DNA from: an uncultured Rhodospirillaceae bacterium
GTDB taxonomy: Bacteria > Pseudomonadota > Alphaproteobacteria > UBA8366
Length of the DNA: 64,000 nt
NCBI GenBank assembly: GCA_964408805.1
Contig: CAYPAV010000016.1
Coordinates: forward strand, 23,006 to 87,005
Direction: 5' to 3'
The notes under the pieces were generated by a model. It worked only from the letters and a program-made list of their open reading frames with translations, had not been told where the DNA came from and did no database searches. Positions 31,578 through 38,179 of the stretch are shown here, piece after piece. Position 1 is the stretch's first letter, and every line of letters starts with the position of its first letter. The position numbers and the translations under genes were made by a program.

Positions 31578-32780
31578 ATGCGCACCTTCGAAGGCATCAC
31601 CGTCATCGACTTCACCCAGGCGATCGCCGGGCCGTATGCCACCTATCAGTTGGCCCTCCAGGGCGCCGACGTGATCAAGGTCGAGCAGCCGGGCATCGGC
31701 GACCAGGGCCGACAGATGTATCCGCTCGACCAGGCTTTCAAGGATGTCGGATATTCCGGCATCTACCTCTCCGCCAATGCGGGCAAGCGCTCGATGACGC
31801 TCGACCTCAAGCACGCGGATGCCAGGGCGGTCGTCCACCGCCTGATCGAAGGGGCCGATGTGGTGGTCGAGAACTTCAAGGCCGGCACGATGGACCGGAT
31901 GGGCTTCGGCTGGGACGATTTGAAGGCGGTCAATCCCCGGCTCGTCTATTGCTCGGTCACCGGCTTCGGGCAATCGGGCCCCCGCGCCAGGGCGGCCGCC
32001 TACGATCCCACGGTCCAGGCGCTCTCCGGCGTGATGGCGATCAACGGTACGGAAGAGACGGGGCCGATGCGGGTCGGCCCCATCGTCGTCGACATCTCGG
32101 CCGCGATCACCGCCGCCTTCGCCATCGCCGGCGCCCTTTTCAAGCGGGAACGGACGGGGAGCGGCGCCTATCTCGACCTCTCGATGCAGGATGTGGGCGC
32201 CGGCATCATGGCGTCCAATCTCATGCAGACCGCCTATGGCGAGGAGCCGCAACCGATGGGCAGCCGCTCCCTCTCCGGCAATCCGATGGCGGACATCTTC
32301 CCAACGAAGGAGGGCGCGCTCCTGTTGATGCCGGCGATCGATGCCCAATCGGTCAAGGTTTGGCCGGTGCTGGGGCGCCCCGAACTGGCGACCGATCCCC
32401 GCTTCGACACGCTGGCGGCCCGGCTCGAGAACGACGCCGAATGCGTCGCCGTCATCACCGAAGCCCTCGCCTCCGCCGACGCCGAGACCTGGGAGGCCCG
32501 CTTCGGCGAGGTCGGCGTCCCCGCCGCCGCCGTCTCGTCGCTGCCCCGCGTCCTCGAAGACGCCCAGCTCGCCCACCGAGGCACCCTCCGCACCGTCCCC
32601 GCGCCGGCCCTCGACGGGCGCGAGATCCTCTACACCGACACCCCCTTCAAAATCACCGACGAGCCCACCGGCGCCGACCACCCCCCGCCGACGGTGGGCG
32701 CGGATACGGACGCGGTGCTGGGGGAAGCGGGGTATACGGCGAACGAGATCGCGGGGTTGCGGGAAGCCGGGGTGGTTTGA
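31578..32780 (+). CDS. CoA-transferase family III (CaiB/BaiF)
   Basis: IAGPYA..LA.QGADVIKVE, NAGKRS, DVVVENF, ITGFG-type SVTGFGQSGP and conserved Asp (VVDIS). Confidence 0.92.
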   Translation: MRTFEGITVIDFTQAIAGPYATYQLALQGADVIKVEQPGIGDQGRQMYPLDQAFKDVGYSGIYLSANAGKRSMTLDLKHADARAVVHRLIEGADVVVENFKAGTMDRMGFGWDDLKAVNPRLVYCSVTGFGQSGPRARAAAYDPTVQALSGVMAINGTEETGPMRVGPIVVDISAAITAAFAIAGALFKRERTGSGAYLDLSMQDVGAGIMASNLMQTAYGEEPQPMGSRSLSGNPMADIFPTKEGALLLMPAIDAQSVKVWPVLGRPELATDPRFDTLAARLENDAECVAVITEALASADAETWEARFGEVGVPAAAVSSLPRVLEDAQLAHRGTLRTVPAPALDGREILYTDTPFKITDEPTGADHPPPTVGADTDAVLGEAGYTANEIAGLREAGVV

Positions 32781-32808
32781 GGAGAAGACAAGTCCGATAC
32801 GGCGCCGA

Positions 32809-33720
32809 TCATCTTTTAAAGGGATGCCGTTCGATCCAGTGCTGGGCGATATCCGCCCGCCGGCAGACCCAAACATCGTCGAACCCGGCGATATATTCGA
32901 GCAGGCGGGCCAGGCCGGCGGCGCGCGCGGGGTGGCCCATGATCCGCATATGCAGCCCGATCGACATCATCTTCGGCGCCGTCGCCCCTTCCTCGTAGAG
33001 CAGGTCGAAGCCGTCCTTGATGAAACGGAAATAATCGTCTCCCGTCGCCAGATAACCGCGCATGAATTTCACGTCGTTGTTGGTCAGCGAATAGGGGACG
33101 ATCAGATGCGGCTTGCCGTCGACCTCGGTCCAATAGGGCAGGTCGTCGCTGTAGGAATCGGAATCATAGGTGAACCCGCCCTCCTCGACCAACAGCCGCC
33201 GCGTATTTTCGCTCGGCGCGTAGCGGCAATACCATCCGAGCGGCCGTTCGCCGACGGTGCGTTTCAGCGAGTCGACGGCAAGACGGATATGCTCGCGTTC
33301 GGTCGCCTCGTCGAGCCGGTAGTGCTCGACCCAGCGCCAGCCGTGGCAGCAGACGTCGTGCCCGGCCGCGCGAATGGCCGCCGCCGCCTCAAGGTTCCGC
33401 TCCAACGCCAGCGCGCATCCGAAGATCGTGACCGGCATGTCATGCACCGCGAACTGCCGCATCAACCGCCAAAAGCCGGCCCGGCTGCCATATTCGAACA
33501 TCGACTCCGCGCCGAGGTTCCGCGCCCCCGGCGGGAACGAGACATTGGAACTCTCGGTGAGGCCGATTTCGGTCTGATCCTCGCCATCGAGGATCGACGC
33601 TTCCGACCCTTCCTCGTAATTGATCACGAAATTCACCGCCAAACGCGCCCCGCCCGGCCATTCCGGATCCGGCGGCGTGGCACCGTATCCGACCATGTCG
33701 CGGGGATAATCCGAAGTCAT
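32809..33720 (-). CDS. Polysaccharide deacetylase family, allantoinase PuuE-like
   Basis: YPRDMVGYG..PP.P.WPGGARLAVNFVINYEEG, ESMFEYGSRAG, HGWRW and MMSIGLH.RI.GHP. Confidence 0.87.
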   Translation of the reverse strand: MTSDYPRDMVGYGATPPDPEWPGGARLAVNFVINYEEGSEASILDGEDQTEIGLTESSNVSFPPGARNLGAESMFEYGSRAGFWRLMRQFAVHDMPVTIFGCALALERNLEAAAAIRAAGHDVCCHGWRWVEHYRLDEATEREHIRLAVDSLKRTVGERPLGWYCRYAPSENTRRLLVEEGGFTYDSDSYSDDLPYWTEVDGKPHLIVPYSLTNNDVKFMRGYLATGDDYFRFIKDGFDLLYEEGATAPKMMSIGLHMRIMGHPARAAGLARLLEYIAGFDDVWVCRRADIAQHWIERHPFKR

Positions 33721-33942
33721 CGCGTTTTCCTTCCCTGCCCGGTGTGGAGTCCGAGGTTTGGAGGATCATAGGGCGGTCCAGGACAGGGCGACAGCGTGCT
33801 TGCATTCGGCCGTGCCGTGGGGAGGCGCGGTGCGTTGATTCGATGTGGAACTCGCTGAGAAAGCTAATTAATTGATATGCTGTCGCCTTCTATCCTTGGC
33901 GTCTACGTAATTCGATAGGGTGTGATCGTATCTCTAGAATTC

Positions 33943-35235
33943 TCAACGGGTAATGAATTTGCGTCTGATACCAATGACAATAAGAGCCATCAAACTCAGA
34001 GAAATCAGGCTTTGCAACGCCATCCAGATCTCCAACCAAAACGCATTGGCTGCTACAAGTGCATTTGTTGAAAATACGTTGAATGGCGTGATGACCGGTT
34101 GAAGGCCAAGAGTAACGGATCGGATGAGGCGTGCTTGAAGACCGTCTTCGCACAATAACTTATGCCATCCATCCAGCTCCAAGCAATTCGACGTCGCAGT
34201 CGCAACATCAAAACAAGAAATCATTGCGCAGGTATAGATGGTAATCCCGACAAGCCATAGGAACGCGCGCCCCGGTAACGTTCCATAAAATGCGGCGGCA
34301 TCGTAAAGGGTACTAATGGTTCGCGCGAAGGTTCCTTGATTGGGTCGGTCCATGCGTTTTTCAAACGCCTGGACATATTTTTCGGCGTCAACATTTCCAA
34401 GCTCACTCAAATTATTTCTCATATTTCGATATGCTTGGGGGTCATCGCTAACGTTGCCTCCAACACATCTCAATGGCGGGTTTCGAACAAATGTCACATC
34501 TCCAGTGAAAACATTTGATCGGGCAGAATCCGTCGAACTAAGAGGAGTGCTGAAGATTCGATTGACCCCGCCACCAATTATCTTGAGCTCATCACAACAA
34601 TTAGGATTGAGAGACAAGCTTCCGATCCACGATTTGGAGATATGAACCTTTGGCAATTCATCAGATGTATTGGTTTCTAGAACAATTCTTCTAACCCACG
34701 AATTAGCAATCCAAATTCTACCACCATATTCTTCGCTCACTACAATTTCGTGAACGTGCAAACCGTTAATAGCCACAAATGAATTCGAAGATTTCAGATG
34801 GATACCGTGTATATGAGCTCGGTTCGGTCCTCCAGCTCGTTCATCATAATTCGCTATATCAATTGTTACTGGCGTGAATCTTTGATCCGCTGAAAGACTG
34901 AGACTTAGGAAATCGCTTCCGTCCATTTCTAAAATAAATGAGGCTGAATTTGCGACCTTTTCATTACATCTACCCTGTACCCACAAGAATGGCGTCGATA
35001 TGCGATTGTCGTCCAGATTCGCATGGATTCTGTTTCCGAACCGGGCTTCAAACTCGTCTACTATCGCTGACGTGACGACCTTTGCTTGGGGTGAAAGCCC
35101 GGAAGTACTCAAAAAACGGTCGAAACCGCTGGGAAGTCTCGGTGTAGAGACCAATTGCCGCACGTAGACATATAGCCCCGCCAAGCCAGACAGGCTAATT
35201 CCGACGAATATGATTGATAGTTGCGATTCAATCAT
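33943..35235 (-). CDS. Hypothetical membrane protein: N-terminal TM, beta-solenoid-like middle, C-terminal multi-TM channel-like domain
   Basis: 430-aa ORF with repetitive I-x-I-x-x-S-W beta segments, QAYRNMR...YGTLPGRAFLW and a C-terminal helix ending IRRKF. Confidence 0.75.
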   Translation of the reverse strand: MIESQLSIIFVGISLSGLAGLYVYVRQLVSTPRLPSGFDRFLSTSGLSPQAKVVTSAIVDEFEARFGNRIHANLDDNRISTPFLWVQGRCNEKVANSASFILEMDGSDFLSLSLSADQRFTPVTIDIANYDERAGGPNRAHIHGIHLKSSNSFVAINGLHVHEIVVSEEYGGRIWIANSWVRRIVLETNTSDELPKVHISKSWIGSLSLNPNCCDELKIIGGGVNRIFSTPLSSTDSARSNVFTGDVTFVRNPPLRCVGGNVSDDPQAYRNMRNNLSELGNVDAEKYVQAFEKRMDRPNQGTFARTISTLYDAAAFYGTLPGRAFLWLVGITIYTCAMISCFDVATATSNCLELDGWHKLLCEDGLQARLIRSVTLGLQPVITPFNVFSTNALVAANAFWLEIWMALQSLISLSLMALIVIGIRRKFITR

Positions 35236-35386
35236 ATTTCAACCATACATTTATTAATCCGGAAAGAAAGAGCTTAACCAAATCGACAGTTCCGATGCCA
35301 GGCGACTAAATGAAATTCTGCCCCCTTAATAGTAGGCATGGCGTTCACATGTTCCCTTATTTTTTGAGGCCGTGAAGCAGTAGCTT

Positions 35387-36034
35387 ATGATGTCTAAATC
35401 AAATGTTATCGCTATGAATTCGGGACGCATCATGTTGATCGCCCGCAAGTCCTGCCAGCGAGCCACCGATCATGACCAGGACGATTCGCTGGCAGCAATC
35501 GTCCTATCGGCTATGGCCCTAGAATGCTTTTTAAATGAGTTTGAGGACAGATTGAGATCATCCCAATTCGAAAGAGAACCCCGTCATCTTCGCGATTTAT
35601 CATTCTCACTTACTACGCTCGAAGAGAAACGAGCGGGCATTCGAGCCAAAATCTCGACAATCCACTACTTTCTCACAGAGGGGTCCAAGATCGATTGGGG
35701 GCATCCGCCATTTCAAGACACAAAAGTTCTTATTGATATTAGAAATAAGTTGATCCACCGAAAGCCTGAGAGATTTGAGTATGAGTTCGAAAATACTGAC
35801 CGGGATTACGAACCGCACAACTTGGTCAAGTATCTTGTCAGCCGGAGTGTAATTGATGCTCCTCACTCAAAGGTTCCGGCTCAATGGAGCCCTTACGTGA
35901 TCTGCCCCGCGACCGCTCGATGGGCGTATAACTCGACACTCCAAACGACGTCCGCCCTTGTCTCCATTCTCCCTCAGGGCAGTGTTTTCAGCGGAACTAT
36001 TCGGTTCTTAACAAAGAATTTTCAGCCAATTTAG
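35387..36034 (+). CDS. Hypothetical protein with HEPN-like R-x4-H motif
   Basis: All-helical pattern with AIVLSAMALECFLNE and IDIRNKLIHRKP. Confidence 0.72.
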   Translation: MMSKSNVIAMNSGRIMLIARKSCQRATDHDQDDSLAAIVLSAMALECFLNEFEDRLRSSQFEREPRHLRDLSFSLTTLEEKRAGIRAKISTIHYFLTEGSKIDWGHPPFQDTKVLIDIRNKLIHRKPERFEYEFENTDRDYEPHNLVKYLVSRSVIDAPHSKVPAQWSPYVICPATARWAYNSTLQTTSALVSILPQGSVFSGTIRFLTKNFQPI

Positions 36035-36141
36035 GACGTTTCAGCCGCTGAACTCGCAATCGCCGCGTTTCCCGCTGTATCATGCCCGGGAACGCAATGC
36101 AGGGTCTACTTGACGCATCACACCAACAGGGGGATCGACCG

Positions 36142-37254
36142 ATGGCGCGGAATGGGATGAAGATCATGGATTCGGACATGCATATCATCGAGCCGCCGGA
36201 TCTTTGGGAGCGTTATATCGAGCCGAAATTCCGGGACCGGGCGCCCAAGGGGTGGCCGGGGCACGAGAACCCCTCGGTGCTTGAAATCGACGGAAGGGTC
36301 TATCCGAAGACGGCGGTGCGGAAGGACGGGAATTATCAGAAAATGTATGGCGGCCTCTACGAGCGCTACAAGCACGCGATCGAGGCCGGCTACGACGCGC
36401 CCAGCCAACTGGTCGGCATGGACAACGAGGATATCGACGTCGCCGTGCTGTTTCCGACACGGGGGCTCTACGCGCTGGCGAGCGACGAGATCGAGCCCGA
36501 TTTTGCCGCCGCCATTTCGCGGGCCTATAACGACTGGCTGGCGGATTTCTGCGCGACCGACCCGACGCGGCTTTTGGGGGCCGCCATGGTGCCGCCGCAC
36601 AATGTCGACTTCGCCGTCGCGGAGACCCGGCGGATGGTCACCGAGCATGGCTTCAAGGCGGTCTTCATGCGCCCGAACCCCGTCAACGGGCGGAACTGGT
36701 CGGACCCGCATTACGATCCCCTCTGGGCGGTGGCGGAGGATCTCGGCATCGCGGTGGCGTTTCACGAAGGCGGCGATGTGGATCTGCCGCAAACCGGCGA
36801 CCGCTTTCCCAATTCGATGATGAGCCATACCTGCACCCATCCCATGGCGATGATGCTGGCGGCGGTCGATATGATCGGCGGCGGTGTCTGCCAGCGCTTC
36901 CCGAAGCTCCGGGTCGCCTTCCTGGAGGGCAATTGCTCGTGGGCGCCGTTTCTGTTCTGGCGGCTCGACGAGCATCACGAATGGCGCCACGAATGGGAAG
37001 GCAAGGAACTGGCGCTGAAGCCGAGCGAGTATTTCAAGCGCCAGTGTTTCTTGTCGATCGAATGCGACGAGGTGCCGGCGAAATACGCCGTGGATGCCTT
37101 CGGCGGCGGCAATATCGTCTTTTCGACCGACTATCCCCATGGGGATTCGAAGTATCCGGAATCGGTCGGCCGATTCTTCGACCTGCCGCTCGCGGAAGAG
37201 GCACAGCGGAAGATCATGTGGGACAACTGCGCCGCGCTCTACGACATTCAATAA
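36142..37254 (+). CDS. Amidohydrolase_2 family (ACMSD/decarboxylase-hydratase-like)
   Basis: DSDMHIIEP, YNDWLADFC, VAFHEG, RVAFLEGNCSW and FSTDYPHGD. Confidence 0.9.
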   Translation: MARNGMKIMDSDMHIIEPPDLWERYIEPKFRDRAPKGWPGHENPSVLEIDGRVYPKTAVRKDGNYQKMYGGLYERYKHAIEAGYDAPSQLVGMDNEDIDVAVLFPTRGLYALASDEIEPDFAAAISRAYNDWLADFCATDPTRLLGAAMVPPHNVDFAVAETRRMVTEHGFKAVFMRPNPVNGRNWSDPHYDPLWAVAEDLGIAVAFHEGGDVDLPQTGDRFPNSMMSHTCTHPMAMMLAAVDMIGGGVCQRFPKLRVAFLEGNCSWAPFLFWRLDEHHEWRHEWEGKELALKPSEYFKRQCFLSIECDEVPAKYAVDAFGGGNIVFSTDYPHGDSKYPESVGRFFDLPLAEEAQRKIMWDNCAALYDIQ

Positions 37255-37264
37255 GAGCGTCCCG

Positions 37265-38179
37265 TCACACTTTCCGCTCGCCCCGCGCGTTCAGCAGGCA
37301 GCCGACGAAGATCACCGCGGCGCCTAAGAGCACGAAGGCGTCGGTCGGCTCCCGGTAGAGGAAATAGCCGAGGATCGCAGCCAGCGGCAGGCGGATGAAA
37401 TCAATGGGTGCGACCAGGCCGGCATCGGCCAGTGCAAAGGCGCGGGCGAAGCAATAATGGGAGCCGAGCCCCGCCAGCCCCGTGACCACCACCCAGGGCC
37501 AAAGTGCGGCCGACGGCATGACCCAGTCCGCCTGCACCAATGCGACACTCAGCGGCAATTGCACCAGGTTCATATAGAACAGGATCGTCAGCGGCTTCTC
37601 GCTCGACGCCATCGAGCGGGTGATCACGAAGGTCGAGGCGAAGCCGACCGCGGCGGCCAAAACGACGAGTGCCGCCGGTTCGATAATGGCGATGCCGGGC
37701 CGGAGGATGATCAGGATCCCGGCGAAGCCGAGCAAGGTCGCGAAGGTTCGCTTCGCGGTCAGGCCCTCGGCCAGGAACAGGGCGGCCAGGATCGAGGTCC
37801 AGATGGGCGCGGTGAATTCGATCGCGAAGACCTCGGCCAAGGGTAGGTGCACGATGCCGTAATACCACCCCGCCTGGGCACCCAGGTGAACGACGTTCCT
37901 GAACCCGTGCAGGCGCCATCGCCCGGTTTTGAAGAGGTGCCCGCCGTAACGCAGGATCAGCACGGAGACGACGGCGAGGCAGAAAATATTGCGGATGAAC
38001 ATGATCTCGAAGATCGAGATTTCCGCCGCCAACTCCCGCCCGGCCAGGGCCATGGCGATGAGGGAGATGACGGCGCCCATCATCCATAGGGTCGCCCGCG
38101 GAAGCGATTGCCCGGGAATGCCTTCTTTCACCAAATCCGTCCCGAATTTCCCGTTATTTGCCCGAGCGGCCGACCGCAT
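37265..38179 (-). CDS. DMT/EamA family transporter
   Basis: About 10 TM segments, LPLAEV.AI.FT.P and APIDF.RL. The start may be GTG 38131. Confidence 0.88.
   Translation of the reverse strand: MRSAARANNGKFGTDLVKEGIPGQSLPRATLWMMGAVISLIAMALAGRELAAEISIFEIMFIRNIFCLAVVSVLILRYGGHLFKTGRWRLHGFRNVVHLGAQAGWYYGIVHLPLAEVFAIEFTAPIWTSILAALFLAEGLTAKRTFATLLGFAGILIILRPGIAIIEPAALVVLAAAVGFASTFVITRSMASSEKPLTILFYMNLVQLPLSVALVQADWVMPSAALWPWVVVTGLAGLGSHYCFARAFALADAGLVAPIDFIRLPLAAILGYFLYREPTDAFVLLGAAVIFVGCLLNARGERKV

Follow-up and report, generated by a model that had tools for sequence, protein, structure and literature searches.

A foreign low-GC islet in a marine alphaproteobacterium carries a candidate stand-alone HEPN defence gene and a separate solo membrane-protein gene

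A low-GC (guanine plus cytosine) islet of about 2.19 kb lies within the 64,000-nucleotide stretch of DNA analysed here, hereafter the window, which comes from an uncultured Rhodospirillaceae bacterium and corresponds to C16:23006-87005 of a genome of 5.24 Mb in 61 contigs, with an overall GC of 0.621. The islet holds two divergent open reading frames (ORFs), herein genes A and B. We consider, with a probability of roughly 0.55, that it is foreign DNA bringing together two independent single-gene cargo modules, namely, B, a stand-alone HEPN defence ribonuclease (RNase), and A, a separate protein acting at the membrane. An earlier note, made from the sequence alone, had described two divergent ORFs of unrecognised function around a 151-bp AT-rich spacer, a description that holds, since the coordinates agree and no library model matched either gene. 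It had also proposed that the pair forms a defence or abortive-infection module, which is not sustained by the data that follow. The features of the islet are:

33856..36040, no strand: low-GC foreign islet of about 2.19 kb, with borders tight around genes A and B (GC profile, genome-wide z and GC at third codon positions, GC3)
33943..35235, minus strand: gene A, a 430-aa membrane protein comprising, from the N-terminus, a transmembrane (TM) anchor, a beta-rich soluble domain of repeats and a 2-TM module at the C-terminus (ORF)
35236..35386, no strand: AT-rich divergent spacer between A and B, exactly 151 bp (sequence)
35387..36034, plus strand: gene B, a 215-aa stand-alone HEPN-like protein (ORF; database gene call P0002; 25-sequence family alignment; AlphaFold2 model, AF2)

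The sharp drop in composition that first drew attention to this region was confirmed by a sliding GC profile and by codon position. The islet has a GC of 0.461, against 0.622 +/- 0.030 for the 2-kb windows of the genome (n=10,263), which gives a z of -5.35, and only 0.15% of the windows are equally low. The profile, at 0.62-0.74 in the flanks, goes down to 0.40-0.50 within positions ~33,850-36,050, both genes share in the drop (GC of 0.456 for A and 0.475 for B), and their GC3 values of 0.436 and 0.523, respectively, compare with 0.803 and 0.806 in the two flanking genes, a difference of 0.28-0.37. The islet interior was found in none of 40 related genomes from the same family or order. The islet was thus acquired horizontally, as had been proposed, given its outlying composition and its absence from every one of these genomes.

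Gene B matches no model of Pfam, PADLOC, NCBIfam or PHROGs and belongs to no curated family, but to a rare one that is missing from these four collections. An initial search retrieved one diverged relative, with 51% identity, and a profile search expanded the family to 29 clusters of 165-238 aa. Most of the homologues, as well as the P0002 gene call, begin at the position of Met10, which makes the alternative start at ATG 35414, leading to a protein of 206 aa, a plausible true start. In an alignment of 25 sequences, with identities down to 29%, residues E46, Q110, R119, H124, K126, P127, E128, P143, W179, A180 and P196 are invariant and N120 is nearly so (at least 90% of the members). The family signature reads LRNxLVHRKPE, and the R-x4-H motif is kept even in the distant member P0028. 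The two elements of B that bear on its assignment to HEPN are:

35741..35758, plus strand: R-x4-H HEPN signature R119-N-K-L-I-H124 (alignment; in register with RN.IAH of RiboL-PSP HEPN)
35522..35524, plus strand: invariant Glu46, within the helix motif [AG][LF]E[CS][FY][VIL]N[ED] (alignment; in register with the Glu helix of RiboL-PSP HEPN)

HEPN domains are recognised by an R-x4-6-H motif with a polar residue (N, D or H) after the arginine, and by a conserved acidic residue upstream, typically within E-x3-[KR], in a background of otherwise poor conservation (PMC3710099). As judged from its alignment, B has both the motif and the upstream acidic residue, the latter in an E-x3-N context rather than the typical one. 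An AF2 model of B is all-alpha, with a mean predicted local distance difference test score (pLDDT) of 91.1 and a predicted template modelling score (pTM) of 0.88. When the family was aligned by hhalign to PF18735 (HEPN_RiboL-PSP), the latter represented by 15 genuine proteins from genomes of the same class, a score of 33.6 was obtained over 93 columns (P = 2.2e-4), with the Glu helix as well as the RN..H motif aligned to their counterparts. Controls scored far lower, namely, 15.3 +/- 3.2 for 30 block-shuffled alignments (maximum 23.4), 12.2 for the reversed alignment and 14.2 for the unrelated A family. Thus, the earlier suggestion of a HEPN-like protein stands, given the invariant motif and glutamate, the all-alpha model and the register with RiboL-PSP HEPN. 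B very probably represents a diverged HEPN domain from the RiboL-PSP/AbiD-F neighbourhood, and we rate the independent homology evidence for this assignment as moderate. A further family member, P0012 (238 aa, from a 1006-bp Logan contig), joins an HsdM_N domain (aa 1-115) to a B-family protein of which the C-terminal two-thirds are present; it retains LRNELVHRKPE and lacks the Glu helix, and it may stem from a genuine rearrangement at a type I restriction-modification (R-M) locus or from chimeric assembly.

The genomic contexts of the B homologues provide a second line of evidence. Ten annotated independent loci were examined, with the following contents:

L009-11: integrase, PhdYeFM, HsdM-HsdS-GmrSD-HsdR, B homologue, 2156-aa protein, AbiEi/AbiEii
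L017: two integrases, B homologue, 2155-aa protein
L014-16: HATPase_c_3, cytosine methylase, DUF2357/PDDEXK_7, PDC-M26A protein, B homologue, Mrr_cat, NOV_C
L068: Lamassu LmuB_C, PDC-M01A/PtuA-like and PDC-M01B genes directly upstream of the B homologue, then PIN-TPR-GreABC and DUF4365
L018: mobilisable element with relaxase, MobC and integrase, and a B homologue
L022: integrase, DUF4062, 1225-aa NACHT-like protein, B homologue
L065: conjugative element with Tra genes and an Xre-RES pair, and a B homologue
L067: integrase and two ParE pairs, and a B homologue
L020: neutral context, a lone low-GC B gene between IclR and LutABC, 17 GC points under its locus
L066: neutral context

Eight of these ten loci are associated with defence genes or mobile elements. 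Four directly abut recognised systems, and the other four are integrase or conjugation elements with toxin-antitoxin (TA) or STAND genes. The giant neighbour at L009 and L017 is Avs3a, as identified by PADLOC model PDLC02167 (E = 1.5e-205 and 1.9e-212) and by its similarity to SeAvs3 (PDB 8dgc, E = 1.2e-123). At these loci the two closest homologues of B (51% and 48% identity) are each followed, after 66 bp, by the ~2155-aa Avs3a (L009:8974-16166 and L017:3226-10439). The B family gave no match to the PADLOC models of Avs3 partners, and no literature on an Avs3 accessory gene was found; AVAST type III loci may have in the B homologue an accessory gene that has gone unrecognised. At L009 (L009:5981-9630), the HsdM-HsdS-GmrSD-HsdR operon ends in the B homologue, with a 4-nt overlap between the B start and the hsdR stop, a placement that resembles that of PrrC and, by analogy, suggests translational coupling of the B homologue with type I R-M. 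At L068 (L068:10758-14714), a 1318-aa PIN-TPR-GreABC protein without a PADLOC match is encoded directly downstream of the B homologue, and is an unclassified resident of this Lamassu/Septu-like island.

The B family is rare and scattered, and it is associated with defence islands. A pattern-based scan of 185,579 species representatives returned six B loci, from Nitrospirae, Acidiferrobacteraceae, Tepidiphilus, Arenimonas, Aquabacterium and Desulfobacteraceae, and none of 400 genomes from the class of the window contained a B-like gene. In the Desulfobacteraceae metagenome-assembled genome (L064:9947-10614) the B homologue is split into ORFs of 80 and 121 aa, which probably makes it a pseudogene. 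Relatives of A or B were found in none of the viral contigs, phage records or plasmid records searched. There is no conserved neighbour of B across the 12 loci, and no nucleotidyltransferase (MNT) antitoxin gene beside it, either in the window or in the annotated homologue loci; B is therefore not part of a HEPN-MNT type II TA system.

The proposal that A and B together make up a defence module depends on the two families being found together, and they are not. With a hidden Markov model (HMM) of the A family, no A-like ORF was detected within +/-8-10 kb of B in any of the 12 B-homologue loci, and the 400 genomes of the same class contain an A-like gene in 21 cases and a B-like gene in none. 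No similarity was found between A and the 2156-aa neighbour of the B homologues, Avs3a. A and B are thus not a conserved two-gene defence system. Since each is found solo elsewhere, each behaves as an independently mobile solo module, of which the islet holds one of each. Among the findings that, according to the earlier note, would speak against its module are homologues that never co-occur and a lack of defence-island enrichment. The former is what we found for the pair; the latter is not what we found for B. Likewise, the proximity of homologues to known defence genes, which it had suggested checking, is seen for B and not for A, whose neighbours elsewhere are housekeeping genes.

Gene A also lacks a match to any model of Pfam, PADLOC, NCBIfam or PHROGs, and none of the Pfam or PADLOC models was convincingly matched by A or its 36 aligned relatives. 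Its closest homologue (L012) shares 71-73% identity and the next-nearest, P0032, 46-47%; an exhaustive HMMER search retrieved 436 representative clusters at E <= 1e-3, 266 of them at E <= 1e-10, and no relatives were found in the metagenome-contig scan. Hydropathy delimits three TM segments (aa 1-26, 323-347 and 401-429), with a soluble stretch of ~295 aa between TM1 and TM2, as follows:

35158..35220, minus strand: predicted TM1 of A, aa ~6-26 (Kyte-Doolittle, 19-aa windows >1.5)
34450..34815, minus strand: beta-solenoid-like repeats of A, aa ~141-262, in units of ~22 aa, e.g. RIWIANSWVRRIVLETNTSDEL and KVHISKSWIGSLSLNPNCCDEL (self-alignment)
33949..34269, minus strand: C-terminal membrane module of A, aa ~323-429, with TM2, a loop of ~50 aa, TM3 and the basic tail IRRKF (hydropathy and conserved columns)

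The repeats are supported by self-alignment (z of 4.4 with A itself and of 5.6 with its family consensus); their core is predicted as beta strands even by a poor AF2 model, and the family consensus is weakly similar (E = 0.027) to Toastrack/DUF4097, a beta-solenoid. The best-conserved positions of the family, carried by the C-terminal module, are Q267, R270, N271, R297, Y311, W357, L361, P384 and the basic tail, and the loop of the membrane module has conserved C351, W357 and C362. The A-family HMM also matches, with E-values down to 1e-25, the C-termini of proteins of 499-710 aa that carry N-terminal Pentapeptide_3 (PF13576) repeats. Because the C-terminal module of A is common to these proteins, A is a relative of membrane-anchored solenoid proteins of the pentapeptide type. 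The positive-inside rule would place the solenoid in the cytoplasm and the loop, with its two conserved cysteines, in the periplasm. The channel-like character ascribed to A in the earlier note finds no counterpart, since no Pfam channel family (E<=1) and no PDB sequence was matched, and all that recalls a channel is the TM-loop-TM layout. Elsewhere, A-like genes occur alone, at 7 of 9 loci with a GC that is on average 10 points under that of their surroundings, next to HflX, GlnE (with a small helix-turn-helix gene), GuaA or an aminotransferase; these are not defence islands, with which the A family is not associated. This distribution suggests that members of the family move singly, with no mobility machinery visible. 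Lone genes of the A-family/Pentapeptide_3 type that are 10-16 GC points under their loci were observed at L049:12683-13774, L050:444-1751, L051:6922-8580 and L054:1875-3632.

HEPN RNases are well-known defence effectors, and B is a plausible new stand-alone member of this class. Like other R-x4-H HEPN proteins, B would be a metal-independent endoribonuclease, whose active site may be formed by R119, N120 and H124 together with E46, probably across the interface of a homodimer. It would be latent in uninfected cells and become activated upon attack by a phage or mobile element, and the activated enzyme could then cut tRNA, rRNA or mRNA, which would stop translation and result in abortive infection or growth arrest. 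This mechanism is drawn by analogy to the single-gene HEPN protein ApeA and to PrrC, which is embedded in R-M loci. At other loci, the B homologues may serve as second-line effectors beside type I R-M, Avs3a, Septu-like and Mrr/McrBC-like genes. A would act at the membrane independently of B, most likely as a membrane-perturbing or scaffolding accessory protein.

Several observations weigh against the view of B as a defence RNase and of A as its independent neighbour. No curated HEPN model reaches its threshold with B. The match of the family consensus to PF18735 (E = 0.037, 14.3 bits) stays below the cut-off of 28.4, and the probability assigned by hhalign to the same relationship is 45%. A Foldseek search with the AF2 model gave no significant match in PDB (best E of 0.65) or BFVD (best E of 0.43), and a PDB sequence search with the B profile returned no meaningful match. 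Among the weak PDB matches, AbiV, 7bxo_F and Csm6 appear at E-values of 1-3.5 and TM-scores of 0.24-0.37; that AbiV, a HEPN-MNT toxin and Csm6 are recurrent counts in favour of HEPN. B has no visible antitoxin or regulatory domain, which is unusual for a potent RNase, and neither the islet nor B was present in any metatranscriptome run. As for A, the AF2 model, built from a 2-sequence alignment, is unusable (pLDDT of 35), so its fold and topology are read from sequence analysis. Lastly, A and B share one tight islet, a similar GC and a common divergent spacer, and the contig of A's closest homologue (1.4 kb) ends inside the gene, before any neighbour; for these reasons, A and B may have been acquired together, or be functionally coupled, in this lineage.

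Other explanations were weighed as well. It is unlikely, but deserves to be kept in mind, that the islet is neutral or decaying cargo in which B would be a non-catalytic or housekeeping RNA-binding HEPN-like protein and A an unrelated envelope protein, neither having a role in conflict. The absence of B from the metatranscriptome runs, the pseudogene at L064, the neutral contexts at L020 and L066 and the housekeeping neighbours of A would all fit. What this explanation does not account for is that the catalytic-type residues are strictly conserved in the B family down to 29% identity, that eight of ten annotated contexts are associated with defence or mobile elements, and that the two ORFs are found intact and without variation in independent metagenomes. 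Rather unlikely, too, is that B is an addiction toxin, resembling those of TA systems, which would stabilise mobile DNA with an unrecognised small protein or RNA, or A, as its antidote. HEPN toxins are common in TA systems (PMC3710099), and homologues of B are found among ParE, RES-Xre and PhdYeFM genes on integrative elements; yet the 12 loci reveal no MNT gene or other conserved neighbour, the islet has neither an Rfam match nor an antitoxin-like tandem repeat, solo copies without a partner exist, as in L020, and at four loci B sits directly beside recognised anti-phage genes.

We regard as distinctly unlikely that A and B work together as a two-gene abortive-infection module, one partner of which would sense the infection, with A acting, for instance, as a pore effector or as an inhibitor or anchor of B. 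Residence in the same 2.19-kb islet, with one control region of 151 bp between them, the recovery of the pair at 100% identity in metagenomes of four studies and the lack of any other visible regulator of B could all be read in this way. Against it stand the counts of 0/12 B loci with an A-like ORF and of 0/21 A-positive genomes with a B-like gene, the existence of each gene as a single-gene islet elsewhere, the somewhat unequal GC3 (0.44 versus 0.52) and the lack of a convincing PADLOC match for either family. PADLOC yielded no match for A or B themselves and, across 25 B and 37 A family members, just scattered single-member matches (E of 0.0025-0.04). More speculative still is the idea that the A family comprises solitary, highly mobile membrane effectors or sensors, in which the solenoid would gate a 2-TM pore, and that A was recruited here to restrain or execute the response of B; the cytoplasmic solenoid, related to pentapeptide proteins, would then possibly be a nucleic-acid mimic, within a lineage-specific abortive-infection unit assembled from two independent modules. 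Finally, that A and B are spurious frames in AT-rich non-coding DNA has practically no probability; it is refuted by the homologues of both, which are full-length and diverged and share conserved motifs (29 clusters in the B family, 436 representatives in the A family). Long open frames are, moreover, less and not more frequent in the low-GC DNA of a high-GC genome. On balance, we retain the explanation of two independent cargo modules, with B as the stand-alone defence RNase.

The islet is bordered by the following features:

32809-33720, minus strand: polysaccharide-deacetylase-like gene (Pfam search)
36082-37254, plus strand: amidohydrolase gene, Amidohydro_2 (Pfam search)
33848..33855, plus strand: left copy of GAACTCGC, a chance match (count versus shuffles)
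36050..36057, plus strand: right copy of GAACTCGC, a chance match (count versus shuffles)

Given the opposite orientation of the deacetylase-like and amidohydrolase genes, the islet occupies an otherwise divergent intergenic region in a catabolic gene neighbourhood, and the 151-bp spacer presumably carries the promoters of both A and B. Promoter and terminator scans gave consensus-level promoter-like matches that were not above those of shuffled sequences. The 8-bp repeat reported at the two edges is indeed present, and was considered as a target-site duplication; this was rejected because its copy number is at chance level, as the earlier note had allowed. The window contains six copies of GAACTCGC, where 4.33 +/- 2.12 would be expected, 27 of 100 shuffles also reach six copies, and the edge copies are therefore uninformative. 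We found no longer terminal repeats, direct or inverted, at the ends of the islet, no integrase or transposase ORF within it and no tRNA gene within +/-9 kb; the islet contains no Rfam family and a single trivial tandem repeat of 1.9 copies. With an integrase, a tRNA target, terminal repeats and a target-site duplication all absent, the islet does not qualify as a mobile element with mobility of its own. The two flanking genes are adjacent in none of the 40 related genomes, so that the insertion point is not definable from an empty site.

The exact islet sequence was recovered from seawater or marine metagenomes of at least eight studies, and contigs from four studies span both junctions with 100% identity. 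Among the junction-covering contigs of these four studies none skips the islet; as all of them carry it, the islet is fixed in the sampled population. Over 6 kb (window positions 32000-38000), zero differences were observed between the window and metagenome contigs from four independent seawater studies (2019-2023), which indicates that the source is a very clonal, widely sampled marine strain. Nine other low-GC (<0.50) regions, including C30:1-12000, C27:47501-50500 and C10:188501-191000, are present in the genome, the largest being ~12 kb long and located at a contig end; these nine regions are possible further foreign islands.

What B would add to the HEPN defence repertoire is a compact (~205 aa) uncatalogued family, overlooked by Pfam, PADLOC, NCBIfam and PHROGs, which, because it recurs right beside type I R-M, Avs3a and Septu-like genes, can be tested cheaply as a candidate second-line RNase or as a candidate accessory partner of known systems. 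The A family is a sizeable group of membrane proteins (436 representative clusters) of consistently foreign composition and with no assigned function. From the islet itself it can be learnt that compositional islets can bring unrelated solo cargo genes together, and hence that adjacency inside an islet is not evidence of a system.

Among membrane proteins, the nearest comparison for A is with the pentapeptide-repeat proteins. With Pentapeptide_3 (PF13576) proteins A shares the 2-TM module, with the conserved elements QxYRNLR, YGxxPxRP, GWxxxLC, NP and IRRRFK in this order, and, like pentapeptide-repeat proteins in general, it has a central beta-rich domain of tandem repeats, of about 20-22 aa per unit. 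Its repeat consensus, however, is I-x-N-[SC]-W-I-x-x-L rather than A(D/N)LXX, and neither A nor its 36 relatives matched the pentapeptide models of Pfam (PF00805, PF13576 and PF13599) or displayed the at least eight contiguous repeats that define these proteins. What membrane pentapeptide-repeat proteins do biochemically is essentially unknown (PMC8145042).

For B, the closest known domain is RiboL-PSP HEPN (PF18735), the best Pfam HEPN match of the family consensus, which Anantharaman et al. (2013; PMC3710099) classified close to AbiD/AbiF among HEPN domains. Both are all-alpha and of ~200 aa, with R-N-x3-H and the upstream Glu helix in register; B differs in a conserved C-terminal extension (P143, W179-A180 and P196), in the extended motif LRNxLVHRKPE and in having neither an L-PSP fusion nor a ParB operon, and its own genome contains no match to PF18735. 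The lactococcal AbiV (PDB 9bj5, 9bj6 and 9bj7), a small helical HEPN abortive-infection protein, accounts for five of the top 50 Foldseek PDB matches of B, all non-significant (E of 1-3.5, TM-scores of 0.24-0.36), but whereas AbiV lacks the canonical histidine of the motif (PMC3710099), B has it.

In terms of organisation, B is best compared with ApeA and PrrC. ApeA is a single-gene HEPN anti-phage protein without an antitoxin, encoded in or beside R-M operons, and is proposed to be activated by an infection signal or ligand and to cleave tRNA anticodons, leading to abortive infection (bioRxiv 10.64898/2026.01.26.701840). B is likewise a stand-alone HEPN-like protein without an antitoxin, with a homologue at an R-M operon; unlike ApeA, it matches neither the HEPN_Apea model of Pfam nor the ApeA model of PADLOC, and the ligand pocket and large oligomer of ApeA are not known for B. 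PrrC and RloC, in turn, are anticodon nucleases linked to type I R-M, PrrC being a second-line HEPN RNase that is restrained by the R-M enzyme (PMC3710099). B does not have their N-terminal ABC-ATPase regulatory domain, and no R-M system lies beside it in the window. The resemblance to PrrC is to be found in the homologue at L009, which closes an hsdMSR (plus GmrSD) operon with a 4-nt overlap with hsdR.

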